A stretch of 63,964 nucleotides of DNA, counting the filler, from Stramenopiles sp. TOSAG23-6 (taxonomy: Eukaryota): the NCBI GenBank assembly GCA_900128565.1. It is 3 parts of 3 records of this genome, joined end to end, with 100 filler letters (N's around TTAATTAATTAA, not from the genome) between each part and the next. Parts side by side here need not be neighbours in the genome. Positions count along the whole stretch, not along the records: positions 44,742 to 63,964 come from LT636052.1; 2 more parts are not named here. One strand, given 5' to 3'. Under the pieces are notes generated by a model. The model ran no database searches. It had not been told where the DNA came from and saw nothing but the letters and a program-made list of their open reading frames with translations. The position numbers and the translations under genes were made by a program. Within the stretch, counting starts at the first letter, position 1; each line of letters opens with the position of its first letter. Of the stretch, positions 39,779 to 63,916 are shown one piece after another.

Positions 39779-41647
39779 TTATTTCTTTTCCCTATCTCTT
39801 GTCTCTCTTTGGAGTTTTTCGCGATTGAGAACTAGGAGTCGAGTTTTTCTATTTTTTTCTCTTTCTTCACGTTGTTTTCGTCTAGCCATCTTCATTTTGT
39901 GTGATTTATATCTTGCTGCTTTCATACGTATTTTTGCTTGTTGTAGTTGTTGAAAATTGTATTTACCATGAGGATTTTCTAAAATAACTTTCACCTCATC
40001 CCAAGATTTTGGTGTTAGATCGTACTTTGGATTCTGCGTATCTTTGAAGTCAGATTTTTCTGCAACACTACATAGTGCAAGAAACATTTTTTTGGTGGAT
40101 GGAATGGGCTGCCCAGGTATCCTTACTTTTTTTTGACATTTTTGAAGGGTCAGTGGTTCAAAAACTAAAGTATGTAAAGTGCGAACACGAAGACTTTCAG
40201 CATGTATTGTGAAATATATTTTATTTTTTGTTAGGTACGAAATTCAGTACGAAAAAAAAAATAAATTCGAAATTGAAAAAAATAAAACATACATGTAACC
40301 ATTTCGGTAGTGTGTCTGAGTTTTCAACTGTTTTCTTCATATTTTGCTTCGATTTCACAGCGTCCGCAAGACGGATTTCAAGTAATGCTTTTTTTCGGCG
40401 TCGTTTGACAGTAGCTAATTGTTTTCTATTCCATCCGGGCCAATCAATGGTAAAACTACTATCAGACATATCAGGATCGAAGTATTTATGTTGGAGATCA
40501 TATGTTGGCACAGTTTGGACTACAGGTCCAGTGTATTNAAATCCACAAGATTTGATTGTATCAACAGCTCGATTGATATCTTTCATGTTAAACGACTTTA
40601 TCATAAAGTCGTATGAATTATTACCTATATTTAACTCACTACAATTTGTTTTTTGTATTTCTGGAATATTTGGTGAATTCACATCACAATTAGTTGCCAT
40701 ACGCGCTTTTGCTGCAGCTGCTAATGCGTGTGCCGGATACAAAGGAACTAACCGAACATCTGGGATATTTTTTTTTGCTACTAAACACAACAGCCTTTTG
40801 ATTTCCCATAGAGGGGGAGAAGATTGTCCTGGAACTCGTAGTCTTTCTTGAAGTTGTGGCAATGTGCGAGGTGCAAGAGCTAATTCATGAATCAGTCGAC
40901 ATTGGAGTGACGCTCGGTGATGTGCAGTTTGAGAAAATTTATCAAGTGCACTTGTTGTGGACTTGACTTCATCTATTTTTTTATATTGTTGATCTTGTCT
41001 AAGTTTTCCCCCAGGATGAATGACTGAATAATATCGAGGAAGTGGAGGTGTCACAGTGTCTTCCGTCTGTCCATGTATGTCGGAGAAATATGTCACATAA
41101 TTGTTTTTCGTTAGGTACGAAATTTGGTATAAAATGTTTTTTTGAAATTCATCATAAAACATACAGAATATACACTTCGGTGTAAATCAAAGCGGTTGTT
41201 ATTTCTATTACGTCGAGATTTTTTTTTTTTAGATCTATCGGCTAGTTTTGATGTATATCTATTATTTAATTGGATTGGTTCGAGTCGTCCACGCATACTT
41301 GGGATAAAAGCCACATTGCACTCTTCTTTGCTTTCATTCAAATAATTGCGAATATATCGGCTATTGTTCGTTGAAGAGGTTCGTAGCATTGTTTGATATA
41401 TATAGTACTTTGCTGCATTCTCAAGCTTATTACTAGATTTCTCACGATTCCTTATTGCATTTATTCTACAACTTAGATCATATTGTCTTGGAGAGAGAGT
41501 TGGTGACCCTGAAAAACCTGGTACCAAAGGTCGGTTGCCACTTTTCAAAAGGACAGGTGGCATTGTATGTAGAGTTTGTTCTTGATACCTTCCTACAAGC
41601 CTGTTGCGAACACGATTGGATTTCATGAGTTGTTTTTTTTTTCTCAT
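39779..41647 (-). CDS. Protein with two ELL-like winged-helix repeats
   Basis: SLQCRLIHELALAP..LRVPGQ..VAKK..YDL..DWPGW, repeated as SLRVRTLHTLVFEP..VRIPGQ..VAEK..YDL. Exons 41647-41165, 41072-40293, 40201-39779. Confidence 0.65.
40202..40292 (-). mobile_element. Introner-like intron GT..CAT
   Basis: CAT|GTATGT..AATACAT|GCT; next AG is out of frame. Confidence 0.85.
41073..41164 (-). mobile_element. Introner-like intron GT..CAT (in-frame CAG 6 nt further is possible)
   Basis: TCT|GTATGT..CATACAT|GGA. Confidence 0.75.
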
Positions 41648-44741: not shown

Positions 44742-44842
44742 AAAAAATATTTAAAAAAAAATCTAAAAAAAATCGTTAGGTACAAAATTTCGTACAAAAA
44801 AAAAATCAAAAAAAAAAATCAAAAAAAAAAATCAAAACGTAC
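44742..44842 (-). mobile_element. Introner-like intron, 3' end lost in gap
   Basis: AAT|GTACGT followed by family core. Confidence 0.7.
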
Positions 44843-46491
44843 ATTTTTTCTTCATTTGCTTTATTTACTTTATTTATAGACCGTACTGAAACCTGAGACA
44901 TTTGGAGTTTTAATTTATTCATATTTTTATCTAATTGTTCAGCATGGATTGTGAAAAAATATTTCAAAAAAAAAAAAAAAATTTGTTAGGTACAAAATTT
45001 TTATAAAAAAAAAACTCGAATTTAAAAAAAAAAAAAAAATTTGTTAGGTACAAAATTTCGTACGAAAAAAAAACTCGATTTTTTTGTAAAAAAAATAAAA
45101 TATACATGTTTCTCTGCTATTTGGCGTTTTTTTAGTTCATCTGTCATGGCAACACACGATTTTGCACGAAATCCAGCTTCATCCATTTGTTCATCTTCTA
45201 ATTGAGCACATGTCTAGTGAAAAAAAAAAAAGTAGTCAAAATTTGTTAGGCACGGAATTTGCAAAAAAAAAAAAAAATTTCAAAAATTAAATTTGAAATT
45301 CAATTTTCAAAAAAAAAAAAAAAAATTTCAAAAATTAAATTTGAAATTCAATTTTGAAAACGTACGTAGAGCTAACACTGTCTGTTCGGCTTTGGCTCTG
45401 GCTGTAGTCTCTGCAATGACTGCAGCACCAACAGATTTAAGTTGTTGTCGTAGTGAAATTGTTGCTGTTTCAATAGCAGCTGCGATAATTTCTTGAGAAT
45501 GTTGAGATGTTTGAGATGTTTGAGATTTTATTGTAGGTACAAAATTTGGTACAAAATCATCTGAATTTTTATTTTCACCATTACATTTTTTCTTAACCGA
45601 ATTATTTTGAATATTATTTTGAATATTATTTTGAATATTATTTTGAATATTATTTTGAATATTTGAAATAGGGTTAGGGTTAATATTTGAAATAGTAGAA
45701 GATGCTGTTGTTGTAGTAGGGTTAGGGTTAGGGTTAGGTTTGTTTACATCATCTTCTTCAATATTGACTGGAATTTCCTTTGTTGAAAAAATAGATGATT
45801 TCCAACTGTATTTACTCCATACACCGGAGAGACTCTTTGCACGAACACGAAATCGATACCGCGTTTTTGGCTGAAGAGATTTGACCACAACCCTACAACA
45901 TTGTTGAGAGTGAGTAATGTTCACATTCTCCAAATTATTCACATTCTCCAAATTATTCACATTTTCCAAATTGTTCACATTTTCCAAATTATTCACATTC
46001 TCCAAATTAGTATTTACTATGGATGTTTTTAATGCTGCTAATGTTTCCGGTGTTTCATTGCCGTTTAATTGTAAAAGTTTAGATACAGGTATAAAACTCA
46101 TGGACTCCGCAAGCAAAGCATCTACTTCAAACGTTTGCCAACTACCAAAAAATAATGTCGAATACTGAACTTCATAGGTTGAAATTTGAGTCTTGTTTTC
46201 TGCATGTTCGTTTTTTTTCTTTGATAATGTGGAAATACAATTCATTGGTATTGGCCATTCAACGACAAGTTGGTCAGGATAACTTTCAATAAGCACCGGT
46301 TGACCAGGTTCATTCGGTGGAATTTCTGAAATATTTTCAATGGGAGGTTGATTAGATACTATATTGAACGTATCACCGTCAGACTTGACGATGGGTACAG
46401 TTGTTTTTATAGTACTCATCTGGTTTTCTGTATATTTTGTACCTTCCTTTTCCAACAAACTGTTATCACTGTGTTTAGAAGATGTACTCAT
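44843..46491 (-). CDS. Fibronectin type III domain + coiled-coil protein, truncated at gap
   Basis: PPNEPGQP..LVVEW..YEVQY..LQPKTRYRFRVRAKSLSGVWSKYS; NNLENV and IQNN tandem repeats. Exons 46491-45366, 45209-45106, 44943-44843. Confidence 0.75.
44944..45105 (-). mobile_element. Introner-like intron GT..CAT with duplicated core
   Basis: CAT|GTATAT..two TACCTAAC..AATCCAT|GCT. Confidence 0.8.
45210..45365 (-). mobile_element. Introner-like intron GT..CAT
   Basis: TAC|GTACGT..CTAGACAT|GT; TAG 4 nt upstream is out of frame. Confidence 0.8.
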
Positions 46492-46925: not shown

Positions 46926-49900
46926 ATGAACACAATGAAGCTTATGACGCTTATGATTCTGATTTCTTTCATAGGTCAAACCTTGGCGATGTTTGGGTTT
47001 TTCACTTCCGGCTCCAAGAAGAATTCCAAAACTCAAACTCAGGTTCCATATCTTGAGGAGGTGGATTCTTTTGTCTCTAAAACCACTGACAACTACTCCG
47101 AACATGCTGCTAGAACAGAAAAGGAAAGAGTCATTGATTACCTGAGTACCCCGCATCGTGATGTCGACCAAGACATCAAAAAATGGCCAGTGAATGATCT
47201 ATATTATAATGTACACAGTTTTTGTGGTCCTAAAGAAGACGAATGTGACAGAGACGACTCAAAACTTGACTACGAGGGCAGAGCTTGGCAAATGTTAAAT
47301 GGAGGGGATTCTGACGATGCTAAAGTGGGGAACGACGATGATATCACTATTAAGAATATTCCACGGGAACCATTACTCTCGAAAAACTTTACACCCAAAA
47401 TGTTACGTTTCGTTCAAGAAAAAGTAAAAGACGCATTTGGAAAAAAGGATTTGTCTGATTATGACTCTTCTCCTGTGCCTCCTGTGTATTACAAACCGTG
47501 GCAAATGTGGTTATATTATTTTGTTTATGCTGGTACCCTTAATGGTGTAGAGCCTGTTTCATATTCATTTGTTGATAATAATCTAGATAAGCTCAAGAAA
47601 CGTGAAGATGAAGTTACTTACATCTTGGAAAAGGTAGAAAAGGTATTGAAAGGTGAAACGGTTTTTGATGACACAGGTGCACCATTTACTACTATATTTA
47701 AAGATGAAGAGGTTATTGATGAAGCAACAAAAATAGGACTTACTGAACAAAACGTCTGGGCTTCTTTTGTTAGTCCAAATATACACGGAATCGCAAGTGA
47801 TGAGTTTGATAAATTCCGAGACCAAGATATATTTGAGGTTCAGGGTCAATTGGTTCCTGACATTATTCCTGACGTTGACTTTAGCCTAGACCAAGATATA
47901 GTTGCCGATGTTCAGGGTCAATTGGTTTCTAACAACTATATTATTCCTGACGTTGACAATAGCCGAGACCAAGATATAGTTGAGGTTCAGGGTCAATTGG
48001 TTTCTAACAACTATATTATTCCTGACGGTAAAATAATTCAAGGTCAAAAACTTGGCCCACTTGGTTATCAATTTGACGACCAAAATATTTTTTCGGCGCT
48101 TGAAGTAACCGAACTAATCGACGATGTTGCTCACGCGTCTCCACCTGATCAAGAAGAGAAATTCACTGGATTCAATGGTCCACTTATAATAGCAAAGACT
48201 GTAGTGGACCAAGGAGATGAAATCGGTAATGAAATTCTTCTGGAATTTAATCGAATTCTTTCAGGTTTTTCAGGTCTTTCAGCAGCCAACTCTGATGTAC
48301 CGGTTGTACCACTAGTATACTTGAATAACAAGTATTATATTAATTATGTTGTATTAAAAAAAGAGCTTCGAAAAGTAATTGACAAAATAATCGAACGTGA
48401 AACAATTAAACGCACAGTGAGTTACATCTTTGAAAGAAACAAAATGGAGCACATGGCATCACTTAAAGAGATATTCGATGTAGAAGCATGTATGCTTTAT
48501 TTTTTTTTCAATTTCGAATTTATTTTTTTCAAAAAAAAATTGTACCTAACGATTTTTGTTTTGAAATATTTTTCCAAAATACATTGGAAAAAGCCCAAAA
48601 AGCTAAAACTGATTTCGAGGAAGAAGCGAGAGCTGCACAACAGGAAGCATGTATGCTTTATTTTTTTTTCAATTTCGAATTTATTTTTTTCAAAAAAAAA
48701 TTGTACCTAACGATTTTTTGTTTTGAAATATTTCTCCAAAATACATTACTAAAAAACACTAGTACTCGTAAAGATTCAATACATGTACGTTTTATTTTTT
48801 TTTTTACAAAAAAATCGAATTTTTTTTTTATAGTAAATTTTATACCTAACATTTTTTTTTTTTTTTGAAATAATTTTCCAAAATACATGATGTAGCATCC
48901 TCCATAGCGGGAGATATCAGTAAAACCCTTTTTCGTCTTTTCAATTATAAAGAAACCAAAGACCAAAAACTAAATACTGTTGCTCTTCTTGTAGGTCATA
49001 TTGAGCATAAAATTAAAGAAATTGAACATTATGTAGTGGATTTATTGGATTTAGGGTATGCTTTTGATGCGGATAAAGTTTTGCGAGAGTTGATCAAAAA
49101 CATAATTTCCTACACGACTCACACCGCTTTTGACAACCATGTAGATTTTAAAAACCATGTTAAAAACAGGCTTATTGCTCTACTAACAAAGATGCCTATG
49201 TATGATCCATTAAATAGATATGCTACTGTTGAATACATGTATCTTTTTATTTTTTTTCAATTTTTTATCTACATTTTTTTATAGGAAATTTTGTACCTAA
49301 CAAAAACTTTTAGATTTTTTTTGAAATATTTTTCCAAAATACAAAAAGAGCCTCGATGATTTTTTTTTAACTGAACCTGATAGATATGATAATGTTGTAT
49401 ACATGTATCTTTTTATTTTTTTCAATTTTTTATCTACATTTTTTTATACGAAATTTTGTACCTAACGAAACATTTTAGATTTTTTTTGAAATATTTTTCC
49501 AAAATACATCCCCTGGCGCAAAATATTTGACCCTTTTTATCATAAAGGGGAAAAAAGGGAAGTAATTCATAAGAGACAATTTTTCTTTAAACATACGCAT
49601 AACATTGATGATGTACCCAATGCATGGAATTTTGCTGGAAGAATGGCAATTTATCAACATTTTCAAGTTTTTTTAAAGGAACAACTCATTTTCTTTAAAA
49701 ATGATTTCAAAAAAAAGGATTGGGATGCTCTCTGGTCTAAAAAAAAACCTAAAAAACCTAAAAAGCCTACAACAGATAAACAAAAATGGGAGATGTGGAT
49801 GGCTACTAGAATTCACAATGATTCACCATTACCAAACTTAATGAATGGCAGAAAACTAAAAAAAGAAGAATGGAAAAAGCTTTCAGGTAAAGAACGAAGA

Positions 49901-50608
49901 ATTTTGGTAGCAAAAGATTCGACATTATTAGAAAAGACTCATATACATGTGTGTTTTATTTTTCGTACGAAATTTTGTACCTAACGATTTTTTTTTATTT
50001 TTCAAAATTTCAAAATTTGTCTACATTTTTTTTTTTTGAAAATTTTGTACCTAACAAATTTTTTATAATTTTTTTGAAATATTTTTCCAAAATACACTTT
50101 CGAGGAGAAAAAGAGGACAGGAACAAAGATAATAAAACACAACAAAACATTATTGACTTGGCAACAAATGTTTCTATAAAATATATATATGTTTAATATA
50201 TTTTTTTTAAACAAAAAAATCGAATTTTTTTTTTTTTGGTAAAAAAAATTTTGTACCTAACAAATTTTTTATGATTTTTTTTTTTGAAATATTTTTCCAA
50301 AATATATGTTTGCAGGAAATGAATTTGCAAATGTTCCGCCAACTCATGAAAACCTACAACGACTGAAGGAATATATTGAAAAAAATCGAAGCATTGTGGC
50401 AGAGATTTGGGCTATTTCTAACCCTATTAAAAATGTTGGAGATGTATGTTTTAGTTTTTTTTTTTAAATTTTGAAATTGAATTTTTTTTTTCATACGAAA
50501 TTTTGTACCTAACAATTTTTTTAGATTTTTTTTTTCAAATATTTTTCCAAAATACATGTACCATACCAAAAACAAAAGTTGGATAAACGACGACAAAATG
50601 ATGAGTGA
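46926..50608 (+). CDS. Unknown secreted protein, about 930 aa, 8 introns
   Basis: Signal-peptide-like N-terminus. Open frame through exons 46926-48489, 48585-48650, 48747-48784, 48889-49238, 49345-49404, 49510-49948, 50098-50186, 50308-50443, 50558-50608. Confidence 0.7.
48490..48584 (+). mobile_element. Introner-like intron GT..CAT
   Basis: CAT|GTATGC..AAAATACAT|TG. Confidence 0.85.
48651..48746 (+). mobile_element. Introner-like intron GT..CAT (near-identical to previous)
   Basis: CAT|GTATGC..AAAATACAT|TA. Confidence 0.85.
48785..48888 (+). mobile_element. Introner-like intron GT..CAT
   Basis: CAT|GTACGT..AAAATACAT|GAT. Confidence 0.85.
49239..49344 (+). mobile_element. Introner-like intron GT..CAA (in-frame AG at 49350 is possible)
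   Basis: CAT|GTATCT..AAAATACAA|A. Confidence 0.7.
49405..49509 (+). mobile_element. Introner-like intron GT..CAT (near-identical to previous)
   Basis: CAT|GTATCT..AAAATACAT|C. Confidence 0.85.
49949..50097 (+). mobile_element. Introner-like intron GT..CAC with duplicated core
   Basis: CAT|GTGTGT..AAAATACAC|TTT. Confidence 0.75.
50187..50307 (+). mobile_element. Introner-like intron, AT..TAT by alignment (alternative 50191-50305 GT..TAT)
   Basis: ATATGTTT aligns with GTATGTTT; both models restore frame. Confidence 0.6.
50444..50557 (+). mobile_element. Introner-like intron GT..CAT
   Basis: GAT|GTATGT..AAAATACAT|GTA. Confidence 0.8.
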
Positions 50609-51377: not shown

Positions 51378-54086
51378 ATGGTACTAGATTTATCTCTTCT
51401 TTGTACACTTAAAACTAAATTACACGCTTCTCTTACAGACACTCCATTTTCCAGTGATACTGTTTCTTTAGATTCACGCTTTCAAGCAACAAAGATTGCC
51501 TTCGAGTCAACAGTTCAAGAATGTCTCTCAGCGAACCTTACAAAAGCTGATGCTACTGCGGTCTTAGAATCATCTCTACGCGCTGCTGTATCCAGCTTAA
51601 TTCAACAGGCTAAATCTGAAAATTTATCAATGAAACAACTTGGTTTTGAAAGTTTACTTGACCTTGCCATGAAGCTTGCAGCTGATGGCACTATCACTCC
51701 CGTTGCAACTATTCATATGTTGGAAGAAGTGTTCGAAACACAAACAATTGATTGTTGTGAAGATATCTGGGGCATATTGGAGGATAGACGTGATGAACTC
51801 TCCTCATCTATTTATTTTACAGACAATCCAAACCGAAATTCAAAAAGTAAATTAGCTCTATTGAGACTTTCTAATTCCCTACTACGACGATTCTCAAAAA
51901 CAAACGATACTGATTTTGTCGGTCGTGTTTTACTTTTTCTTGCCTATATATACCCATTATCTGAAAAATCTGGTGTCAATATTACCGGAAAATATAACGA
52001 TGCAAACTTAACTTTGTTTGAAAATGACGAAAATGAAAATGACGAAAATAATAAAGACAAATCAACAGAAACAACAACTTTGAAGGAAGCCAATTCTGAA
52101 AAATCTCTACCCGTTGATATTTTATTATACAAAAACTTCTGGGCATTACAAAATCATTTCTCAAATCCAAACGAGACATTGAAATCTAAAAGTAATTGGG
52201 ACGATTTTCTCTCTAAAATTGAAAAAGTAATTGTTGCTTTTGAAGGTCATAATTTTAAACAAACTTCAAATGAATCCAATGTTCAAAATGTTCAAAATGT
52301 TCAAAATGTTCAAAATGGTACGAAATCGTCTGAAAAAAAAGTGTATTATTATTGTACAAAATTTTTAACAAAAAAAAGTTTATTACGATTGCAACTAAGA
52401 GATCCTGTTTTACGACGTCATGTATTTTTTCATACGAAATTTTGTACCTAACAAAAAAATTTTAGATTTTTTTTGAAATTCAAATTTATTTTTCATACGA
52501 AATTTTGTACCTAACAAAAATTTTTAGATTTTTTTTCAAATTGTACAAATTGTATACCTAACCAATTTCGAATTTGATATTTTTTTTTTGACCATTCAGG
52601 TTTTAGTTCAAATGCTTGTTATTTTTGAATATTATACAAAAGTTTTATGTTTATCTTCAAATACAAAACTTGAAAAAGTTTCATTAACAAATTCGTCGAA
52701 TTCTTGTACGTTTTCAACATTGAATTGTAAAAAAATTTTAAAAAAATTAAAAAAAAAAAATTTTTACAAAAAAAAAATTTTTACAAAAAAAAATTCATAC
52801 CTAACAAAATTTTTTTTTTTTTTTTTAATATTGTTCAACTGTTCATCTCCTCCATCATCTACAGCATTAGCACCCACAACATCCCAATCTGTTGGGGAAA
52901 CAAAATTAAAGGAACAACTAGAGACTTTCAATGCCATTCAAACATTAGCTCCATTTCGTGAACGTGTCACAAAACTGCTCAAGGAAACTCCCCCAAGTGG
53001 TGAAAAATTTTTAGAAACAGTGACGAGTAATTTTTCATCATACTCTTCAAGTTTTTTTTTTTTTTTTTTTATAGTAAATTTTGTACCTAACAAAAAAAAT
53101 TAAAATTTTGGAATTATTTTTTCACAATTTATATATTTTGTCTAGAGAACTTTTTTGGATTCGTTGGAAGACGAATCGATGCAAGCCTTATGACAGACCT
53201 GCTATACCTGCACCAGTATGTTTTCAAAATTTTTTTTGTTTTTTGTAAGAGATTTTTGTACCAAACAATTTTTTTTAAAAAATTTTTTTAAAAATTTTTT
53301 TTTTTTTGAATTTTTTTTTTCGGAAAAACATTTTAAAATTCTTAATAAATTGTACAAAAAAAAATATTTCCTAATAGTATATAAACTGAAACGGAAGCGA
53401 AAACGAATAGATGATGTGTCAAATGCTCGTCGATTAAGTCAATTAGCAAAAACATATGAAAAACATGTTTGTTATTATCATCTCTTTGAATAACTTTTAT
53501 ACCAAAAAAAAAATTTGTTAATTTTTTTTTTGTACGAAATTTTGTACCTAACAGTTTTTTTTTTATTAACAAAAAAAAAAAAATATTTTTCACAATTCAT
53601 GATAATATTGCTTGTTTGTCAGAAAAAACTCGATTGACATCTCAGTCATTAGAAACTTTCCTACAACCAATGAGAGATGCAATGGATCCAGAAAATTGTA
53701 TTGAAGATATATATCATCCAAAACATGATAAAGTATTTTGTTGGAGAGGTTTACGTTTAATTTGTATGTTTTTTTTTCATTCAATTTTTTTTAGAAAAAT
53801 TTTTTTTTAGAAAATTTTCAAATTCTTTTTAAAAAGATACTTTTTTATCTAATAGAAAATATCAAATGTGTAATGTTTTGTTTACAATATAGCACAGTCA
53901 AACTTCAAAGTATTTGAGAAAATGCATTGTGGTGGTGGTAATTTAGAAGATGCCATTAAAATTATTTCAAATTCAAAAAAAAATGTTGATTCTACTCCTA
54001 ACCCAAATGATATTGAAAAAAATGCTTCGCAGTCAACTTCAATGGATATTGATGTGACGCCAAATCAAACTAAAACTACAAAATAA
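51378..54086 (+). CDS. THOC1: THO complex subunit 1
   Basis: LLRLSNSLLRRFSK..FVGRVLLFLA..PLSEKSGVN, LYKNFWALQ, LQLRDPVLRRHVLVQ, ETPPSG..NILSRE..W..WK, WRGLRL. Exons 51378-52421, 52600-52705, 52847-53026, 53133-53215, 53383-53466, 53601-53763, 53893-54086. Confidence 0.92.
52422..52599 (+). mobile_element. Introner-like intron GT..CAG with three TACCTAAC copies
   Basis: Restores THOC1 RRH|VLVQ. Confidence 0.9.
52706..52846 (+). mobile_element. Introner-like intron GT..CAT
   Basis: TT|GTACGT..GTTCAT|CT; in-frame length, poly-A/T interior. Confidence 0.7.
53027..53132 (+). mobile_element. Introner-like intron GT..TAT
   Basis: GA|GTAATT..CACAATTTAT|AT restores ETVTNILSRE. Confidence 0.85.
53216..53382 (+). 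mobile_element. Diverged introner-like intron GT..TAT
   Basis: CCA|GTATGT..ATAGTATAT|AAA; TAG 5 nt upstream is out of frame. Confidence 0.75.
53467..53600 (+). mobile_element. Introner-like intron GT..CAT
   Basis: CAT|GTTTGT..CACAATTCAT|GAT. Confidence 0.8.
53764..53892 (+). other. Intron GT..TAG (diverged)
   Basis: Restores WRGLRLIS-QSNF. Confidence 0.85.
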
Positions 54087-54592
54087 AATTTTTCTTTCTT
54101 CTTTTTTCTTCTTTTTTCTTCTTTTTTCTTTTCTTAAAATTGGAACAAACCTGTTTTGTTTTTAAAATCCCCGATTGTTTTGTTTTATTTCAAAAAATTT
54201 TGAAATTCAAATTCATCTGTGTGTGTGTGTGGGGGTGGGTACCAGTGATGAAACACTATACTTACTGTATATATATAATAGTAGCTATACTTGAATAATA
54301 ATACGTCGTCGTTAGTATTTCTCTGAAGATTTCGCTACAGTGTGAACACAAGAGATATTTGTACGCTACTACTCTGTACAAAGTCATTTACGTAACGTGT
54401 TTTATAATCTATTGAATCACTACATAGATAAAGCCAAAGGAGCCAAAGCACCGTCGAACTGTAAGAACTGTTCCTTTACACTCATTGGATTCAATTGTAA
54501 TTCCTATTCAAGTTACTTTACATTGGATTCAATTGTAATTGCTATTCAAGTTAATTTACACTCATTGGATTCAATTGTAATTGCTATTCAAG

Positions 54593-57500
54593 ATGGTTTG
54601 TATAGTATTCACAAGATATGTAGTACTTCTAATACTCATACACTTACAAAGGAATATAGAACAATGTTTTTGTGTTACCAGTGATGATATATCTAGTGAT
54701 ACTCCTGGTGATGATATATCTAGTGATACTCCTGGTGATGATATATCTAGTAGTGATAGGAGTTCTCCTGGTGATGATACAACAAAGAATAATCAAATTG
54801 TAAAATATGCCGAATTACAAGAAGCTCTAGAAAACGCCCAAAAAATGGGTGTGGTTGGAGTTTCTGATATCTCAGAGTCTATACGAAAAATAGGTGGACA
54901 ATTTTATGGAAATCCTTTGGATGAAGAGTCAAATCTAAGTACAGACAGAGCAGAAGAAGAAGAAAAAAATGGAATTCTCTCAGAAGACTCAGAAGAAACA
55001 AATGAGAATGAGAATCAAAATGAGAATCAATCAAATAGATTATCTTCACTTGAAGAGGATGAAGCGATGGGTGAAGATATTACGATTCCCTTCTGGGGTT
55101 CACTAAATAATCCTAACGCTGACGCTGATGTGTTTTTAACTGAACAATGTATATTTTATTTTTTTTTGTTTTCGAAAAAAAAAATCGAATTTTTTTTTAT
55201 AGTAAATTTTGTACCTAAACTAAAAGATTTTTTTTTTTTTTTGAAATATTTTTCCAAAATACATTTAATAAAGTTCATCATTATCTCGGATTAACAGATA
55301 ATGACTTTGAAGAGAAAAAACATAAAAATTTGGAGTCTTTTACTAGTAGTAATGATTTGAAGGAACGAGGACTACAAGAAGAAATCAAAAAACAAGAAGA
55401 AAAACAAGGAATATTCAAACATATCATTGAAATCTTGGAAGAAAATATAGAAAACGTAAAAACAATTGCATATCCAACTCCATCGCAAGAAGTAAATGGC
55501 GGAGAGAGTTCTAATGAAGCAAACGCAGTACATGGTGAAGAGAGTTCTGATGAAGCAAACCCAGTAAATGATGGAGAGAGTTCTGATGAAGCAAAACCAG
55601 TAAATGGTGGTGCAGTCGATGGTGCAAATGGTGAAGAGAGTTCTGATGAAGCAAAAGCAGTACATGGTGAAGAAAGTTCTGATGAAGCAAAAGCAGTACA
55701 TGGTGAAGAGAGTTCTGATGAAGCAAAAGCATTAAATGGTGGTGCAGTCGATGGTGCAAATGCTGGTGGTACTTCTCCAGAAGAAAAAGTAGAACAAAAA
55801 ATAAAAGTAGAAGAAAAAGACGCATATAAACAAGAAGGAGAACAAGAAGGAGAAGAAGAAGAAGACGATGATGATGATGGTGTTGATAATAGACTCGTTA
55901 AAAGAATAGAAACCACTTATGGAACGACTTGGAAGTACTTACCAAGCGATGGTAATACTGTGGGTTATAACCTCTTGAATATCAAACAATCCAAGAAAAA
56001 ATTTAAGGAAGACCTGAAAGCTGCTGATCGTCAACATGTAGAAATGTTTGTGAATGAATACCTTGATAATAAGCCGAAGGAAAAAAAAGAAATTTTTTCC
56101 ACACACGTAGGTTACATCTTTCATACTTCATTTCAAATATATATAGGCTACATTTTTAATACTTCATTTCAAATATTGTGTTATCACAAGAAAACCTCGA
56201 AATCAATTTTTTTGTTCCTAACAAATTTCCAAAACTTTTTGTTTTTATACAACACATGGTGGTTTCTTAAGAGGTCTATTATATGTAATAATGATAAAAA
56301 CACAAACTACTTCTTGTACAATCACATCAAGCAACACAGAAATTCAATTTCCTCTACGACAAGAATGTATGTTTTATTTTATTTTTTACAAAAAAATCGA
56401 ATTTATTTTTTCATAGGAAATGTTGTACCTAACAAATTTTAGTTTTTTTTTTGAAATATTTTTCCAAAAAACATATGTTGAGGTACAATGTTTCAACGAT
56501 ACTCAACCTACATTTTCTTTTGCATTATATTCAGGGTCTCCAAAATCAGATTTAGTTGACAAAGAGTTTGTCCTAGATGTATGTTTTTTTTTTTAATTTC
56601 GAATTTTTTTTTCGTACGAAATTTTGTACCTAACTATTTTTTTTTTTTTNGGNAAAAAAAAAATATTTTTCATAATCCATAACATAGATATAGGCAAAGG
56701 AGACGAAAAACAACAAAAAAATATTGCCAAAAAAAAAGCCAAACGAATAGACAAAGACACAAAAAAAATTAATAAAGATATTTTGTATGGAATAATTGGT
56801 AATGGTGCGTTAGTCCTTTTACAATATTCAGATTGTGAGACCTGGTTTATACGTCATTTTCCTTCTATATCAAATGTATGTTTTTTTAAAATTTTTTTTT
56901 AAATTTTTTTTTAAATTTTTTTTTCGTACGAAATTTTGTACCTAATAATTTTTTTATAATTTTTTTTGAAATATTTTTCCATAGCAAATGTATATGATGT
57001 CTTTGGAAGTTTAAGGAAATTTAGAAAAGACCCAGAATTAATTTCAAAAGGTATGCATAAATTTTTAGAAAAAATGTACATTTACATTTTACAATCAATA
57101 TTATTTTTATTTTTCCCCTCTTGTTTTATTGGCTTTATTCTCTTTATCCAAAGCTTCTGGACACTAATAAATTTCGAATTTGACATATTTTTCAACAATT
57201 TTTGGAGAACGCATATAACGAAAAAAAAAAGGTGAAAGAATTTTTCAAAATTTTTTATGGAGTTGTACAAAACCACGAAACACGTGTGTTTTATAGTGGT
57301 CTGACTCGAACCCTACAAACGTAGGTTTTTTCATTTTAATTTCAATTTTTTTTTTTTTCGTATGAAATTTTGTACCTAACAATTTTTTTTTTTTTTTTGA
57401 AACTATTTTTCACAATACATATTTGTTATAATGAAATTGTTTATTGGTTCACTAACAGAAGGCTGGAAATGTGACTGTCTCATGAAAGACGCTGAAGCAG

Positions 57501-60263
57501 AGGCAGGAAACAATACAGATTTAAAATGTGATCATACATTTCAATTAGAAATCAATAAAGATTTTAAATGTGATTCAAAAGTCGATGAGATGAAAAATGC
57601 TTCAACAAGAAAATTAAATTGTCTTAATTTAATTTCAGAAATTCCATCATCGGATCCAGCAAATGGAACCGGTGAGTCTGTTTCTAGGAATACGAAATCT
57701 TTTGTTGCAAATGTTATTGCAGATATTCTACCTGGCGAACCCAAAAGACATATTATTATGACAGCCGCAATATCACCCGTGTTGGCTCTTGAAGCGATAT
57801 TTGTTCTTCCTGCCGCAGCAATTGGTAAAAAAGCGCAAATGCTCATTTCAAGCTTTAAGAAGAAAACGTTCGATAATACTTTCAATAATAAAAAAAANGA
57901 GAAGTTTCTAAATAAACTTAAGACAAAGTGTGGTCAAAATGAGGATGCTGATACTAGTGATGATACTGATGATGGTGGTAATGGTGGTAATGGTGGTATT
58001 GGTAGTGCAAATACTGGTGGCACTACTGCAGAAGAAAAACTTCAACAAAAAATAAAAACAGAAGAAGAAGAAGAAGGAGGAGAAGGTTCTGGAAATGATC
58101 CTGAAGATGATAGTGATACATCTACTGAAGATGATAGTGATGATGATAGTGATGATAGTGATGATGGTGGTAATGATCGTACTGGTGGTGCAGTCGATGG
58201 TGCAAATGCTGATGGTGGGGCACCAAAGGTGGCCAAACATATTATAGATGAAAGTGATGATAATAATTATACTACTGGTGGTGATGCAGACAACAATCCT
58301 ACTGATGGCGGTGATGATAGAATTGATGAAGAAGGACCAGCTCCAGGACCAGCTCCAGGACCAGCTAAGGGTCATACGGACAGTTGGCCGGCCTCGATGT
58401 ATGAGTCTTTGGATAGTAGGGGTGCTCCAAGTGGGCCAAGTGGGCCAGGAGACTTGATTACTGCTTCAGAGGAGGGTAACGTGGCATTAGTTGAAAAACT
58501 TATCAAAGAAAAAACAGCTGTGAATCTGATTGATAACGAAAAAGACTTTCTATTGATTAAGTTTGTGAATCAGATTGATGACGAAAAAGAAACTCCATTG
58601 ATTAAGGCTTCAAGGAAGGGTCATCATAAAGTAGTTAAACTACTTATTGATGCTGGTGCTGATGTCAATCAGACTGATGAAGACGGAGGTACCGCATTGG
58701 ATAAAGCTTCAAATAAGGGTCACGCAAAAGTAGTTGAATTACTTCTTGCCGTAAAGGGAATTAAAGTCGATGCTGATGTAGGAATGGGGTATACTGCATT
58801 ATTAAATGCTTCAGCGAGCAGAGAGAGGGGTTGTGCAAAAGTAGTTAAATTACTTGTTGATAAGGGTGCTAAAGTGAATCACAAATCGCATTTCGGAAAG
58901 ACCGCATTGACAATAGCTTCAAAGAATCGTAATGTTGGAGTAGTTGAAGCACTTCTCGCTGCTAAAGATATTGATGTCAATCTGGCTGATAAAAGCGGAG
59001 CTACACCGTTGTCAATTGCTAAAAAGAATCATAATGATAAAGTAGTGAAACTACTTGTTGATGCTGGTGCAGTTGATGAAACGAAAAAAGCTGGCGTACC
59101 AAGATTTCGAGAAACATCAAGAAAAATGTTTTCAAAAGGAAATCATTTCAATGATGGAAGCATTAATAGAATGAAAAATGCGCATCTTTTAATTCATTTT
59201 GTAATGAATAAGTTACAAATGCAACTATGCATGTTTTATTTTTTTTTTTGTATGAATTTTTTTTTATAGTAAATTTTGTACCTAACAAATTTAAGTTTTT
59301 TTTTTTCAAATATTTTTCCAAAAAGCATTACTAATCAAATCGAAAAAAGAGGAACAAATTCTTCACTTAAGACTCGAAATATTTCAAAATAGTGTAGCAA
59401 GTCGAAAGAGTAAACTTGAAACATCATTAGCAATGCAAGAATTAGCTCGTGAGAAAGTTCAAAATGCAAAAAAACGGATTTTGGAATTGGAGGAGAAAAT
59501 CCATAATGTCAAAAAACAACGAGAGTTAAGTAAATCATATAGTTTAGGATCTGATTACTCCCCTTCAGATGATGATTTTGAAATATCTCTTCGTGAAACA
59601 TCTCAATCTCATAATGTACATAAATATGACGATGATGATCAAGATGATCAAGATGATGAAGATGATGAAGATGTAGACACATTTTATCATAAAACATCTC
59701 ATAATTCACATAAATATGACAAAGTAAATATCAATAATGAAAATGATTTCACTGATGAGCAGGAATCAACCTTCAATGCAGATGAAATATTCAAGGAAAT
59801 AAGTATGAATGAAGAAAATCAATCATTAAATGATTCATTTGGATCATCTAGAGGTAGTCTTCCCATTGAAACAAGTCATCAACTTCGTCGAAAAAAAAGT
59901 ACGTCACTTGTATTAGATGCAACACATGAGGCTGAGAGAATGATCAACAAACTCAAATCTGAATTACATCCGAGTAGTGTAGAGGGAACTCATGTTCTTA
60001 AAGCGTTGACTAACGCTGTATCTGCAATTAAATCAATTAGAAGTGCAGCACATGATACGATGAAAGATGTATCTGTTGTTGATGTACAAAATAGACTTTT
60101 ACAACCAATAGTGAGTTACTCTGCAATGCCAGACTGTCTTGCAAATGCATCCATGGCAGATCAAACTATTGGAAATATTTTTGCTGCTGCTGTAAAAAAG
60201 AAAGGAAGTGGGTTTAGTGGTTCACAAGTCATTCTTCCAGCGGAAGGTATGTTTTATTTTTTT

Positions 60264-60310
<47 letters not shown>

Positions 60311-61697
60311 CGTACGAAATGTTGTACCTAACATTTTTTTTTTTAAATATTTTTCCAAAATGTATGTAGTACTAAACCCTGCAAAACCGATTTATTCTTA
60401 AAATCAATGGTACCTAGAGAAATAAAGCAATTGCAAGCTGTACACTTTGGTAAACATTATATACAATATCCTTATTCTGTCATGTCTCGATTATATGGAA
60501 CTGCGAAATTTAAAAAAACGACATGTATGTTTTAATTTTTTTTTTACAAAAAAATCGATTTTATTTTTTTTTTTTTGGTAAAAAAATTTTGTACCTAACA
60601 AATTTTCAAAATTTATTTTGAAATATTTTTCTAAAATACATGGCTTATAATGGATCATTTACCAAAATGCCCATATTCCAATCAACCTCCTTTATTTTTT
60701 GATTTGAAAGGGGCAGATGAAAACTCAAATCCTCTTTGTTTTACACCTGAATATCGACGAAAAAATGTATGTTTTATTTTTATTTTTTAAATTTGAAATT
60801 GAATTTTTTTTTTACAAAAATTTTGTACGTAACAAAAAAAATGTAGATTTTTTTTTGAAATATTTTTCCAAAATACATGCATTGTGTCATGATTTGGAGT
60901 GGGAGAAAAATATAATGGATATTCAAAAAAAAGAAAGAGTATTTGGTGATCATAATGGGAAAGACGAAAGTGATAATATATTTGAAACTTTATGGCAAGA
61001 TACATTGTGGATGCAAAATAATGGACTCATGGATTATTCAGCAGTATTGTACGTTTTTATTATGAATTCAAGTTTTTTTTTTTTTTTTTGGTTTTTGTGA
61101 AAAAAAAAATTCAAAAAATTTGTTAGGTACGAAATTTCGTATGAAAAAAAAAATTAAATTTTTTTTTAAATTTTTGATGAAAACATTTCACATTACATGG
61201 GAATTTGTCCTTTTGTGGACACTCATATGAATAAGTTATTGAAACTTGCTCTGTACTTAATACAGGAGGAAAGTTTATCATGTACTGAAGTAAAATCATT
61301 ATTTACTCGTCAAAAGTTATCTGATTTTAATTTTAATGAAAAACATGTATGTTTTTTTTTTTTTAACAAAAAATTCGAATTTTTTTTTTTTGAAAATTTT
61401 GTACCTAACATTTTTTTTTTTTTTTTGAAATATTTTTCCAAAATACATGATATTGATTTTGATAATATTAAATTAAACAAAAACTTTTTCCCCTCAAAAA
61501 TGGTAAAGAATATAAAAGAACAAAAGTATGGTCGGAATGAAAGCAATAACCAATATAGCACAGAAGAATTACGTAGATGTTTGTCATTTCTTCGAACAAA
61601 TGATGATAATGCTGAAAATCTACGATGGCACACCCATCGTTTTGATTGTAATTCTTGTATTCTTTTGTATTGTTGTATTTCTAATTCTGTCATTTGA
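54593..61697 (+). CDS. Multidomain protein: signal-like N-terminus, acidic repeats, ankyrin repeats, coiled coil, PIP5K-like domain (about 1850 aa, 13 introns)
   Basis: Ankyrin TPLIKASRKGH and GTALDKASNKGH; PIP5K-like GSGFSGS, FLKS, SRLYG, FDLKG, MDYSAVLGI. Exons 54593-55148, 55265-56106, 56258-56366, 56475-56578, 56681-56875, 56990-57050, 57215-57320, 57421-59228, 59329-60246, 60366-60524, 60642-60766, 60879-61048, 61199-61346, 61449-61697. Confidence 0.7.
55149..55264 (+). mobile_element. Introner-like intron GT..CAT
   Basis: AAT|GTATAT..AAAATACAT|TT. Confidence 0.8.
55495..55770 (+). repeat. Coding tandem repeats GEESSDEAKAVH / GGAVDGAN
   Basis: 36-bp units directly visible. Confidence 0.9.
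56107..56257 (+). mobile_element. Diverged introner-like intron GT..CAT with duplicated 5' part
   Basis: CAC|GTAGGT..AACACAT|GGT. Confidence 0.65.
56367..56474 (+). mobile_element. Introner-like intron GT..CAT
   Basis: AAT|GTATGT..AAAAACAT|AT. Confidence 0.8.
56579..56680 (+). mobile_element. Introner-like intron GT..CAT
   Basis: GAT|GTATGT..AATCCAT|AAC. Confidence 0.8.
56876..56989 (+). mobile_element. Introner-like intron GT..AAT
   Basis: AAT|GTATGT..CATAGCAAAT|GTA; TAG is out of frame. Confidence 0.7.
57051..57214 (+). other. Intron GT..CAT without clear family core
   Basis: AAG|GTATGC..CACTAAT..ACGCAT|AT restores frame. Confidence 0.55.
57321..57420 (+). mobile_element. Introner-like intron GT..CAT
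   Basis: AAC|GTAGGT..CACAATACAT|A. Confidence 0.75.
59229..59328 (+). mobile_element. Introner-like intron GC..CAT (or GC..AAG ending at 59325)
   Basis: TAT|GCATGT..AAAAGCAT|TA; both ends are in frame. Confidence 0.75.
60247..60365 (+). mobile_element. Introner-like intron GT..TAT
   Basis: AAG|GTATGT..AAAATGTAT|GT; TAG 4 nt downstream leads to a stop. Confidence 0.85.
60525..60641 (+). mobile_element. Introner-like intron GT..CAT
   Basis: CAT|GTATGT..AAAATACAT|GG; using the next AG would delete FDLK. Confidence 0.88.
60767..60878 (+). mobile_element. Introner-like intron GT..CAT
   Basis: AAT|GTATGT..AAAATACAT|GCA. Confidence 0.85.
61049..61198 (+). mobile_element. Intron GT..CAT with inverted family core
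   Basis: Restores MDYSAVL-GI; interior reads GTTAGGTACGAAATTTCG on the sense strand. Confidence 0.75.
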
Positions 61698-63916
61698 ATA
61701 TCTCCAATGTTGCTACTTGGATCATATAAAGTATTATTCTCATTATCCTTATTATTAATATTTTCCGTATTTTCTAATTTTGTTGTATTTGTTGCAGTAC
61801 CAAATATTTGATGTGTAACGTTACCAAACATATGATTTGACGTATTGTTTTTTGTATCTAATGTTTTTTGTTTCAATGATACCCCAAATGACTTTGCTTC
61901 TTGTGCCTTTTGTGCCATATGACTACGTATATCATTTGCATTCAATGCTTTGGCTTCTATTGCTAAATCTTTTGCTTTTTTTTGTGCTTCTTCAACTTTT
62001 TGTTTTGCTTTTTCAGTAGTCTCAATGGCAAATTCAGTGGCTTTCTCCTTTGTTTCTGCCGCAATGATTGCAGCTTTCTTCTTAGCTGCCTCAGCAACAC
62101 GACTTCCAGCCTTAAAAATTTCAGACATGGTTATGTTCCCATCTTCATCGAGATCAATTTCTTCCATCGCCATTGCTTTCGCAGATTGTACATAACGACA
62201 ACAAGTAATGTATTGTGAAAACATATGAAACACTCAAAATTTGTTATTATAATACATTTTGAATTAATTATAAAAAAAACAAAACATTCGAAATTAATTT
62301 CAAAAAAAAAATGTTAGGTACGGAATTTCGTATGAAAAAAACAAAACACATACATGAATGGTTTTGAAATCTTTATGAATATTCGACCAATTCTTGTTTT
62401 TGACATTTTTCTTGTAAATGCATTACATCGTTCAAAAGGACCAGGATATGTATAGTGAAAAAAAAAAAAACGTTACAAAATTAAATTAGTTTATGAAAAA
62501 AAAAATTTTACAAAAAAAAAAAGTTTTTACAAAAAAAAAAAAAAATCTAGAGAGAATTATTTACATGTTCGTTTAAACCATGATTGTCTTCCACGATAAT
62601 CTGGTACATCATTAAGCTCTAATTCTTGAATAGTATTAGATTTTGTTGCTTCTGTTAAAACAACTGCATGAGCACCTGATCCAGACTCTCCCATTGAATA
62701 AAATAACCAATCCATGGCATGACGTACACCTATTCGTGAAAAAACGTAGAAAATAAAAAAAAAGTATTAGGTATGAAATATTTTTACGGAAAAAAAAAAT
62801 TAAAATTTTAAAAAAATTTTTAAAAAATTTTCAAATTTTAAAAATTTCAATCAAAATTCATTATGAAAACGTACCAACACCACGAGGATGTTTTCGTGTT
62901 GTAAGAGCTTGGAGAGGGAGAATTCTCCAAAATCGTTTCGGTTTTTTATTTGATTTACTTTTTGTTTTGTTTTGTGTATCATCTATCAACGGTTTTGAAG
63001 ATCCTAAAATTTTTTTTAATTTTAAATATGTCGATAACAAACCTGTTCGCATAGCTGTAAACTTATCCTGTTTTGAAGCTAAAACTAAAAGAGGCACTCA
63101 TGTTATTAAGAAAATATTTCAAAAAAATTCTAAAAAATTTGTTAGGTACAAAATTTCGTATGAAAAAAAAAATTCATAGTAAAAAATAAAATAAAAACAT
63201 ACCATTTAAAGATGCATCTCTTGATATCATTTTTAATTGAGCTCTGGCAGTTTCAAAAGAAGAAAGTTTCGATACTACAATAGACTTGTTATATGTCAAA
63301 TTTTAATGAAAACATGTCAGGTACAATATTTCGTACGAAAAAACTAAAAAAAAATAAATTCGAAATTTGATGATAAAGTACCTGATGAATCTACGAAAAA
63401 TATTATGCCATCTGTTCCAGGAAAATATTTAGACCAATGTTGTTGGATATGTTCTTTTCCACTTATTTCCCAAAATTGTACCTATAATGAGTGAAAAGAA
63501 ACGTTTTAAAACATTTGATTTTTTTTTGTTAGGCACAAAATTTTCATACAAAAATGAATAAAAAAATGAATAAAAAAATGAATAAAAAAATGAAAAAAAA
63601 TACATTTGAAATTCATGATGAAAACGTACATTTCTGTTTCCATACCGTACAGTGCTTATAGAGAGAGGGGCTACTGTTGGTTCAATACAAATTGTGAAGA
63701 AATATTTTTGTTTTGTAAAAAAAAAAAAAAGTTAAAAAATTAATTTTTTTTTTTTTGAAATTTAAAAAAAAAATTTAAATGAAAACAAACTCGATGTGAA
63801 GGTCGGTACAACCCTCTGCGTTTTTTCCTACGACTTCCATTGTTGTATGCATCTCGTCCATCATCATAAGGTTGGTCTAAAACTTGTTTAATAAATGCAG
63901 TTTTTCCAGAATTGAC
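61310..63916 (-). CDS. ARF/ARL-like GTPase with long C-terminal extension (EF-hand-like motif, coiled coil); 5'-truncated by window, 3' end uncertain
   Basis: NSGKT, IEPTV, FWEISG, WSKYFPGTDGIIFFVDSSD, PLLVLASKQD, GVRHAMDWL; DLDEDGNITMSE. Exons 63916-63791, 63686-63630, 63481-63382, 63292-63203, 63099-62875, 62729-62565, 62447-62354, 62207-61310. Confidence 0.8.
61347..61448 (+). mobile_element. Introner-like intron GT..CAT
   Basis: CAT|GTATGT..AAAATACAT|GAT. Confidence 0.8.
62208..62353 (-). mobile_element. Introner-like intron GT..CAT
   Basis: CAT|GTATGT..CACAATACAT|T. Confidence 0.8.
62448..62564 (-). mobile_element. Diverged introner-like intron GT..CAT
   Basis: CAT|GTAAAT..CACTATACAT|AT. 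Confidence 0.75.
62730..62874 (-). mobile_element. Introner-like intron GT..TAG
   Basis: Restores GVG-VRHAMDWL. Confidence 0.85.
63100..63202 (-). mobile_element. Introner-like intron GT..CAT (in-frame GAG 3 nt further is possible)
   Basis: ATG|GTATGT..ATAACAT|GA gives LNGVPLLVL. Confidence 0.8.
63293..63381 (-). mobile_element. Introner-like intron GT..CAT
   Basis: CAG|GTACTT..TTGACAT|AT restores ARF VDSSD; next AG is out of frame. Confidence 0.85.
63482..63629 (-). mobile_element. Introner-like intron GT..TAG
   Basis: AAT|GTACGT..TTATAG|GTA. Confidence 0.85.
63687..63790 (-). mobile_element. Diverged introner-like intron, GT..TGT by alignment
   Basis: CGA|GTTTGT..CACAATTTGT|ATT; no in-frame AG nearby. 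Confidence 0.6.

Follow-up and report, generated by a model that had tools for sequence, protein, structure and literature searches.

A transposon-like family of introns with putative YAT acceptors in Stramenopiles sp. TOSAG23-6

We analysed a 63,964-nt stretch of DNA (the window) from the protist Stramenopiles sp. TOSAG23-6 (GenBank assembly GCA_900128565.1), which joins parts of three records. The window is AT-rich, with a GC content of 0.24-0.42 in 2-kb steps, and both strands are dense with genes: there are 61 stop-to-stop open reading frames (ORFs) of at least 120 amino acids. Nearly every gene is interrupted by introns that are copies of one introner, a repeat that resembles a miniature inverted-repeat transposable element (MITE). 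The host genes include a myosin, an Arf-like gene, a PIPK-like gene, and many unnamed ORFs.

A search with nhmmer, using a profile of 20 copies, gave 50 matches to the element at E ≤ 0.01, or about one per 1.3 kb. Its 9-nt core (GTACCTAAC) is found as an exact match 23 times on the plus strand and 12 times as the complement. The element runs from GTATGTTTT through TTTTGTACCTAAC and a T-run to TTYCAMAATACAT; in the consensus of 29 aligned copies, the donor end reads (AT)GTATGTTTTATTTTTTTTT and is followed by A/T-rich sequence, by the core AAATTTTGTACCTAACAA, by the T-run, and then by GAAATATTTTTCCAAAATACAT. A branch-like motif similar to TACCTAAC, which contains CTAAC, is present in 28 of these 29 copies and is followed by T-runs. 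An earlier note on this DNA, made from the sequence alone, had proposed to plot the distances from branch to acceptor, and these turn out to be 28-46 nt. Sequence differences among the copies show that they did not arise by duplication in the assembly.

Our counts are for 38 copies, 82-178 nt long: a first set of 35 and three that were added later (24804-24906, 63629-63482, and 63381-63275). (Left out of the counts were 55-1, which runs off the start of the window; 22264-22469, 44548-44642, and 44745-44842, which include N linkers; and 24098, 24377, 37311, 62252-62353, and a short match within an ORF at 45534, for which no flanking frames could be assigned.) The linkers between the parts of the window (22318-22417 and 44642-44741) each consist of 44 Ns, TTAATTAATTAA, and another 44 Ns. 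Both lie within copies of the introner, so the assembly evidently breaks at this repeat.

Every one of the 38 placed copies is in the sense orientation relative to its gene. In the antisense orientation, a copy would retain the GT..AT ends and the palindrome and would lose GTATGT, CTAAC, and the T-run. The uniform orientation therefore argues that strand-specific signals of the spliceosomal type are needed.

For each intron, we took the G of GTATG as the first base and the final base of the conserved 3' motif as the last, and we then spliced whole genes accordingly. By this definition, 32 of the 38 copies end in AT, four in AG, one in AA, and one in AC (Table 1). The terminal pairs are GT-AT (29 copies), GC-AT (2), AT-AT (1), GT-AG (4), GT-AA (1), and GT-AC (1). 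Among the first 35 copies, the donor has G at +1 in 34, T at +2 in 34, A at +3 in 32, T at +4 in 29, G at +5 in 27, T at +6 in 32, and T at +7 to +9 in 33-35. At the 3' end, in these copies, position -3 is C in 29 and T in 5, position -2 is A in all 35, and position -1 is T in 31, G in 2, and A or C in one copy each.

Most of these signals are those of U2-type introns. The donor has the GTATGT consensus, extended in the manner expected for U1 and U6, and the branch motif fits CTRAY and is followed by a pyrimidine tract. The AG is what does not fit, as it is present at the inferred end of just 4 of the 38 copies. One of these, at 13736-13831, ends in CACAATACAG and has AG at the exact position of its relatives' AT; its removal restores a 2380-aa ORF. 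For the acceptor, the best description is thus Y-A-N, and mostly Y-A-T (Y is a pyrimidine and N is any base). The four AG-ended copies have lower scores against the family profile than the other 34 (Mann-Whitney p = 0.013, from small numbers), which fits with their being older copies that have drifted or been selected towards AG. As for the 3' motif TTYCAMAATACAT, position counts show that it is real. However, it is conserved largely because the introns are copies of one repeat, so its conservation alone is no evidence of a recognition signal.

The inferred ends are tied to the reading frames of the host genes. Long ORFs were restored across 36 of the 38 copies (33/35 of the first set and 3/3 of the later ones). 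Two further ORFs, of 590 and 478 aa, have 5/5 and 2/2 open junctions. On the plus strand, the single junctions in a 348-aa ORF and in the 2380-aa ORF are open, as are 7/7 junctions in a 1237-aa ankyrin/PIPK-like ORF. A 941-aa ORF spans 8 junctions, with its frame broken just past the last of them (50444-50557), and in the gene at 54581-57320, 3 of 4 junctions pass and 56367-56474 fails. On the minus strand, 2/2 junctions are open in a 1258-aa myosin ORF, 2/2 and 1/1 are open in two other ORFs, and single junctions are open in ORFs of 198 and 112 aa. As a control, we slid the 3' end of the first 35 introns: 34 junctions were open at offset 0, as compared to 4-8 at offsets that were out of phase. 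This implies that the phase is firmly tied to the ends of the element. The long ORFs of the window contain no in-frame TAA, TAG, or TGA, so the code is not of the ciliate type with reassigned stop codons.

The earlier note had claimed that canonical AGs next to the acceptors appear to be bypassed, and the coordinates that it gave are all correct. The intron at 60247-60365 starts with GTATGTTTTA and ends with CCAAAATGTAT. The TAG just downstream does lead to a stop: if 60246 is joined to the sequence past the AG at 60368-60369, the product is ILPAEVLNPAKPIYS followed by a stop, after 11 codons. The intron at 60525-60641 ends with TCTAAAATACAT, and the next AG, 69 nt downstream, would indeed delete WLIMDHLPKCPYSNQPPLFFDLK. 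Other AGs lie upstream of the inferred ends. Those at 1582, 53377, and 56984 precede the ends at 1577, 53382, and 56989 by 5 nt each; for the end at 45210, the AG (at 45214) is 4 nt away, and for the end at 60878 it is 32 nt away (at 60846). The note described the bypassed AGs as out of frame, which is correct for every one of them if the donor is GTATG. But if the donor is instead the GT at +4 (GTAT/GTTTT), then the AGs at 60369, 53377, and 56984, for the introns that begin at 60247, 53216, and 56876, are in frame and give no stop. Splicing to an AG from another donor is therefore a live scenario for 60247-60365, and not, within the range that we searched, for 60525-60641.

More generally, for 28 copies we considered the first AG that is at least 8 nt past the core. 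It is in phase with the conserved donor in 9 of the 28, as expected by chance, so a rule of taking the first AG fails to account for these introns. In 9 of the 28 copies, that AG falls within the intron as inferred, often as TTTTTTAG. The earlier note's proposal that the acceptor is not chosen by AG scanning is thus upheld insofar as the first-AG rule fails and TTYCAMAATACAT is real. The means of choice that it proposed instead (position, structure, or an extended motif) are candidates.

We also considered simpler rules for the ends. A rule of taking the first YAT after the core was rejected because most copies have a TAT farther upstream. AT-AC ends, which would require shifting the intron to the left by at least 2 nt, are possible for just 21 of 35 copies. 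And TA..TA ends, like those of internal eliminated sequences (IESs), would assign conserved flanking bases to the host.

The earlier note did not recognize that the introns belong to a single repeat family, nor that they have a terminal palindrome and a direct repeat of AT. The termini of the element (ATGTAT... and ...ATACAT) are complementary to each other over about 6-9 nt and form a terminal inverted repeat. Across the boundaries there is also a direct repeat, usually of 2-4 nt: the exon ends with AT just before the intron in 28 of 35 copies, and the intron itself ends with AT in 31 of 35. At positions -3, -2, and -1, the exon has C, A, and T in 17, 28, and 28 of 35 copies and the intron has them in 29, 35, and 31 of 35, so that the 3' site repeats exonic bases, as in the tunicate-type case of Fritillaria discussed below; the next exon begins with G in 19 of 35. 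The CAT at the end of the intron and the composition of the flanks suggest that the target was CATG and that its central AT was duplicated. This in turn suggests that the acceptor could be the duplicated insertion target.

Our preferred explanation, to which we assign a probability of about 0.6, is that these introners, non-autonomous elements that have spread through the genes, are removed from RNA by the spliceosome using a YAT acceptor. The element would supply a strong donor at its first base (GTATGTTTT), the branch-like TACCTAAC, and the T-run. Its last bases would be ..ATAC followed by a copy of a 2-nt target, AT, probably the centre of CATG. Removal of the element along with one copy of the AT would restore the gene, with Y-A-T (mostly CAT) as the acceptor. 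At the last base, the host spliceosome would have to tolerate U, and in some introns A, C, or G, with the A at -2 and the pyrimidine at -3 being kept. The 3' site would not be found as the first AG; instead, candidates for what marks it are its distance from the branch, a longer motif at the 3' end, and a terminal helix that involves the last two bases of the exon. By its geometry, this helix would place the scissile phosphate two pairs from the end of the upstream exon. Older and diverged copies would have acquired AG.

Several of our observations count against this explanation. When the 3' end is moved by 3, 6, or 9 nt in either direction, 26-33 of 35 junctions are still open, so the ORFs fix the end modulo 3 only. 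Its exact position is based on the GT and the motif, which are both conserved, and on the repeat at the boundary. Two introns (50444-50557 and 56367-56474) break the frame under our rule. This could be due to 1-nt indels in the assembly or to other 3' sites, such as the CAT ending at 50564, which would restore the frame for 50444, or the AC at 56472. (We rejected 56476 as a rescue for 56367 because its phase is wrong.) Around these introns, at 50444-50564 and 56222-56476, two reading frames are open side by side over 125-150 nt. As the assembly has many Ns and two linkers, some of its indels may be errors. In most copies, a TAT upstream of the acceptor, within GAAATATTTTT, would also be bypassed. 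The intron at 61049-61198 has its ends in the forward orientation and its centre (profile positions 34-87) inverted, so it does not have CTAAC on the sense strand; a sense CTAAC may therefore not be indispensable. We found no related loci that might represent an empty site in metagenome contigs, and a pattern for the element had no matches there either, so the case for target duplication is inferred from the statistics of the flanks. Finally, some of the introns could be spliced with canonical ends. For 33 introns, we searched for GT or GC donors within 30 nt and for AGs from 40 nt past the start to 40 nt past the end that would keep the local frame open. For 13 of the 33, including 60247-60365, there is a frame-keeping pair within 12 nt on both sides, often with the GT at +4 of GTATGTTTT. 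(Among these 13, one copy has an AG end of its own.)

These canonical pairs raise the question of whether all of the introns might be GT-AG or GC-AG introns with shifted sites, so that the match to the AT ends is a by-product of the shared length of the element. Of the 31 tested introns that do not end in AG, 24 have at least one frame-preserving pair in the searched range, with examples at 60251..60369 and 56880..56984, and the public gene model P0122, which is on this sequence, uses canonical sites only. However, 7 of the 33 introns, namely those starting at 10669, 49405, 50187, 50444, 60525, 61347, and 22056, have no such alternative in that range, which includes 60525-60641 and 61347-61448. 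The earlier note had named splicing at its AGs from alternative, frame-preserving donors as what would overturn its claim, and for these 7 introns that scenario is excluded within the searched range. Furthermore, the alternative positions vary from copy to copy, and many of them delete coding sequence; the first AG past the core is in phase no more often than by chance; where the intron starts at 53051, the gene is broken by use of the AG at 53145 and stays open with the AT at 53132; and P0122 deletes kinase segments that are kept in its relatives P0121, P0126, and P0144. We judge that shifted canonical sites are a very unlikely explanation for the family. Removal that does not involve the spliceosome and is guided by structure, as has been proposed for euglenids and diplonemids, is also unlikely, if easier to entertain. 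The ends would pair, and the cuts would be at fixed places in the helix with a stagger of 2 nt. In our copies, the last two bases of the exon and positions +1 to +3 of the intron can pair with positions -5 to -1 of the intron in 88% of cells, the boundaries have direct repeats, and nonconventional introns with paired ends and repeats like target-site duplications (TSDs) are known, according to passages of PMC6221363, PMC11282704, and PMC12621601. Three pairs have changed on both sides (A:U in 50187, C:G in 59229, and C:G between exon -2 and intron -1 of an AG-ended copy), a number reached by 5 of 500 shuffles, which is weak covariation. Minimum-energy folds include the terminal stem for 9 of 12 introns, with weak energies and z-scores from -2.8 to +0.8. 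On the other hand, shuffling the columns already gives 86% pairing, the stem is six AU-rich pairs that close a loop of over 80 nt, and in just 2 of 12 introns was the fold matched by 2 or fewer of 200 shuffles. There are also several working copies with two or three broken end pairs (such as 56579, 56876, and 63202), the 5' end is a textbook GTATGT donor accompanied by CTAAC and a T-run, and every copy is sense despite the symmetric termini.

Another candidate is a minor spliceosome similar to the U12 type that tolerates non-AG ends and finds the 3' site by distance. The U12-type donor, which the literature supports in general terms, is RTATCCTT, and the long and conserved 5' motif of our element, GTATGTTTT, matches the consensus GTATCCTTT at 7 of 9 positions. 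However, positions +5 and +6 of our donors are G and T, not CC, and CTAAC, at 28-46 nt, is not close to the end of the intron. The U12 machinery is able to splice GT-AT and AT-AN introns, with seven natural GT-AT introns of the U12 type in human and mouse (in part of PMC1557818), and in Physarum, U12-type introns that have short inverted repeats and unusual borders are reported to have expanded greatly (in part of PMC11282704). But the long T-runs of our elements are absent from U12-type introns, as described in PMC1557818, and this candidate seems quite improbable to us. We give the least credence to the idea that the elements stay in the RNA, whether because they are excised from DNA in a somatic nucleus in the manner of IESs, because they are disabling insertions, or because they are artefacts of assembly. 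The inverted-repeat ends and the short boundary repeats do resemble those of excised DNA elements, and the assembly is fragmentary, with Ns and with both linkers inside copies. But the copies carry strand-specific splice-like signals and are always sense, and the long ORFs, which have no in-frame stops, do not follow a ciliate code. The borders are not TA..TA, 38 phase-restoring insertions in nearly every gene do not fit with decay, and the differences in sequence among the copies are not those of assembly duplicates.

A different account of spliceosomal removal is conceivable, and we consider it doubtful: in a lineage of stramenopiles, the major spliceosome might have moved its acceptor from YAG to YAU for most introns, with a CATG-targeting MITE as the driver of the change and with a 3' site that is picked by a helix and without AG scanning. 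The palindromic AT duplication would extend the terminal helix and become the acceptor. From the geometry of the helix, the upstream exon's free 3' OH would be opposite the scissile phosphate over the minor groove, at a distance of two pairs. Later changes from T to G would "domesticate" old copies into GT-AG introns.

Our preferred explanation, of introners with a YAT acceptor, has partial precedents. In Fritillaria borealis, passages of PMC11282704 and PMC13326754 describe MITE-derived introns with AG-AC or AG-AT ends, an exonic TAC that forms the 3' site, and a modified U2 spliceosome. Both systems have short introns that derive from transposons, with inverted-repeat ends and a 3' site from an exonic repeat. 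Duplicated and diverged U2AF subunits are associated with introns of the Fritillaria type. In contrast, the donor in our window is GTATGT and not AG, one family dominates rather than many, CTAAC and a T-run are present, and the host is a protist. In Amoebophrya, non-canonical introners have inverted repeats of 8-20 nt, by which their ends pair, and direct repeats of 3-5 nt over the boundaries (as reported in part of PMC7789003). Those introners have no preferred dinucleotides, and their host may lack U1, whereas in our window GT..AT accounts for 29 of 38 copies and the direct repeat is mostly 2-4 nt, and the genome is AT-rich. Canonical introners from Micromonas, Aureococcus, Symbiodinium, Chrysochromulina, and others are described in passages of PMC9860276 and PMC11282704 as resembling DNA transposons, with terminal inverted repeats (TIRs) and/or TSDs, one splice site that the element carries and another that comes from the TSD, and high copy numbers in the genes of aquatic protists. 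Their ends are GY-AG, whereas the TSD-derived acceptor here would be AT. As the starting point of that survey was introns already annotated, it would not have seen a GT-AT family.

The nonconventional introns of euglenids, as described in part of PMC6221363, do not have conserved borders, a 5' end that is complementary to U1, or a pyrimidine tract, and those of hemistasiid diplonemids are GC-rich and without conserved ends (in part of PMC12621601). Transposon-derived non-canonical introns are also mentioned for Polarella and euglenids in a passage of PMC11282704. The euglenid and diplonemid introns resemble ours in having ends that can pair, TSD-like repeats, and a suspected origin from MITEs, but their borders are variable, GC-rich, or of the Y/R kind, whereas ours have conserved borders, a donor that could pair with U1, and a pyrimidine tract. 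In animals, GT-AT introns include rare U12-type introns and one conserved U2-type intron in DGCR2 (in part of PMC1557818). These have the same terminal dinucleotides as our introns and show that the chemistry is possible, but there are a handful per genome and they are not repeats, whereas 32 of 38 introns in 64 kb end in AT here. In the literature that we searched, no paper connects introners with GT-AT ends, and none connects introners or non-canonical introns with MAST-3, MAST-4, Incisomonas, or Nanomonadea, although the supplements of papers may contain statistics on introns in single-cell assemblies of stramenopiles. Searches of the literature for the motif strings gave unrelated matches only, and the main text of a paper on single-cell stramenopile genomes treats introns in its methods only.

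If RNA confirms the AT ends, then a free-living protist with a gene-dense genome would have, for the most part, introns that are young copies of a transposon, with a canonical donor and branch and with a non-AG acceptor. Unlike in Fritillaria, Amoebophrya, or the euglenids, the problem of the acceptor would be cleanly split from the problem of the donor. The changes from AT to AA, AC, or AG at one position would form a natural series for studying how the final base of an intron is read in the second splicing step, and the family would be a live example of intron gain by an element that duplicates its target. Gene models built on GT-AG rules would be wrong for such genomes, and surveys of introners that begin with annotated introns would miss such a family.

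Table 1. Copies of the introner for which ends were assigned, by position in the window
Position	Strand	Ends	Remarks
444..535	-	GT..AT	myosin gene
1577..1688	-	GT..AT	myosin gene; AG 1582 5 nt before end
10669..10768	+	GT..AT	no canonical alternative
13736..13831	+	GT..AG	ends ..CACAATACAG
21950..22056	-	GT..AT	no canonical alternative
24804..24906	+	GC..AT	
34536..34628	-	GT..AT	
40202..40292	-	GT..AT	
41073..41164	-	GT..AT	
44944..45105	-	GT..AT	two-core copy
45210..45365	-	GT..AT	diverged copy; AG 45214 4 nt before end
48490..48584	+	GT..AT	
48651..48746	+	GT..AT	tandem duplicate of 48490
48785..48888	+	GT..AT	
49239..49344	+	GT..AA	
49405..49509	+	GT..AT	no canonical alternative
49949..50097	+	GT..AC	two-core copy
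50187..50307	+	AT..AT	+1 A paired with -3 T
50444..50557	+	GT..AT by motif	frame breaks; CAT ending 50564 would restore it
52422..52599	+	GT..AG	two-core copy
52706..52846	+	GT..AT	diverged copy
53051..53132	+	GT..AT	diverged copy; AG 53145 fails frame test
53216..53382	+	GT..AT	diverged copy; AG 53377 5 nt before end
53467..53600	+	GT..AT	diverged copy
55149..55264	+	GT..AT	
56367..56474	+	GT..AT by motif	frame breaks under the rule
56579..56680	+	GT..AT	
56876..56989	+	GT..AT	AG 56984 5 nt before end
57321..57420	+	GT..AT	
59229..59328	+	GC..AT	in-phase AG 3 nt before end
60247..60365	+	GT..AT	ends ATGTAT; in-frame alternative GTTTTA (60251)..GTAG (60369)
60525..60641	+	GT..AT	no GT/GC-AG alternative in searched range
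60767..60878	+	GT..AT	internal TAG at 60846 bypassed
61049..61198	+	GT..AT	forward ends, centre inverted; splits conserved ..MDYSAVL/GICPF..
61347..61448	+	GT..AT	no canonical alternative
63100..63202	-	GT..AT	Arf-like gene
63275..63381	-	GT..AG	diverged; Arf-like gene
63482..63629	-	GT..AG	diverged; Arf-like gene

Some copies have unusual structures. Within the intron at 60247-60365, an uninterrupted run of about 60 Ts (60266-60330) is far longer than the T-runs of other copies. Three introns (49949-50097, 52422-52599, and 44944-45105 on the minus strand) are composites with two TACCTAAC cores, as if an element had landed in or beside another or had been partly duplicated. At 48490-48746 and 49239-49509, a short exon and its introner are duplicated in tandem, with near-identical copies; in the pair at 49239-49509, one copy ends in AA and the other in AT. 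In viral contigs, a 17-nt pattern from the core had six single matches, one of which weakly fits the profile, and we treat these as chance.

The gene that contains 60247-60365 and 60525-60641 lies at 57421-61700 on the plus strand and has the 1237-aa ORF. In its product, ankyrin repeats (Pfam Ank_2, E = 4.9e-34) are fused to a low-complexity region that is acidic and to a C-terminus that is PIPK-like and very diverged. When its exons were compared to Pfam's PIP5K, one of five matched, and weakly (E = 0.013). The gene also has DLKG and MDYS..GI, which we take to be PIPK motifs, so the PIPK assignment rests on one weak Pfam match and on motifs that we presume to be characteristic. A search of the PDB with one exon gave just a chance match to a lysozyme. 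In searches of protein libraries for spliced forms, a 56-aa exon had no matches among longer proteins and a 305-aa exon had none among 1.84 billion representative sequences.

Proteins of the window other than the kinase described below are distant from all those in the libraries. For the myosin, a protein search gave 221 matches at E ≤ 1e-3, and among the 120 that were listed, whole-length matches are 21-30% identical. We built a hidden Markov model from 40 of the 120 listed matches and used it to score 511 in-frame pairs of donors and acceptors; the best 30 are within about 5 bits of each other, which does not resolve the junction. The Arf-like small GTPase gene (62864-63700, minus strand) was identified by a Pfam Arf match to one 33-aa exon (E = 2.6e-8). 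Its introns, two GT-AG and one GT-AT, belong to the same element family.

A DYRK-like kinase at 4888-7131 on the minus strand is encoded by a single uninterrupted ORF of 748 aa. A protein atlas also gave a name for the kinase. Its best protein match is P0122, which is labelled as being from a MAST-3-type stramenopile, and the public gene model for P0122 maps exactly to 7101-4888 on the minus strand. This model cuts five pieces of 51-92 nt from the uninterrupted ORF; by a greedy exact-match mapping, four of the five are bounded by GT..AG and the fifth is not cleanly readable. The removed segments are conserved in P0121, P0126, and P0144 (P0121 is a kinase that is 76% identical to P0122 and is on another contig). 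Because P0122 drops conserved segments of the kinase, we conclude that the public models were built on canonical rules and are no guide here.

A search against Rfam gave no matches anywhere in the window. When sampled words from the window were looked up in sequencing runs, the fraction was 0.78-0.80 for X1 and X2 and 0.06-0.17 for X3-X8, which says nothing about expression or habitat. An ORF at 7688-9292 on the minus strand combines a RING finger with a RAWUL domain, which is the architecture of the Polycomb proteins PCGF and RING1.

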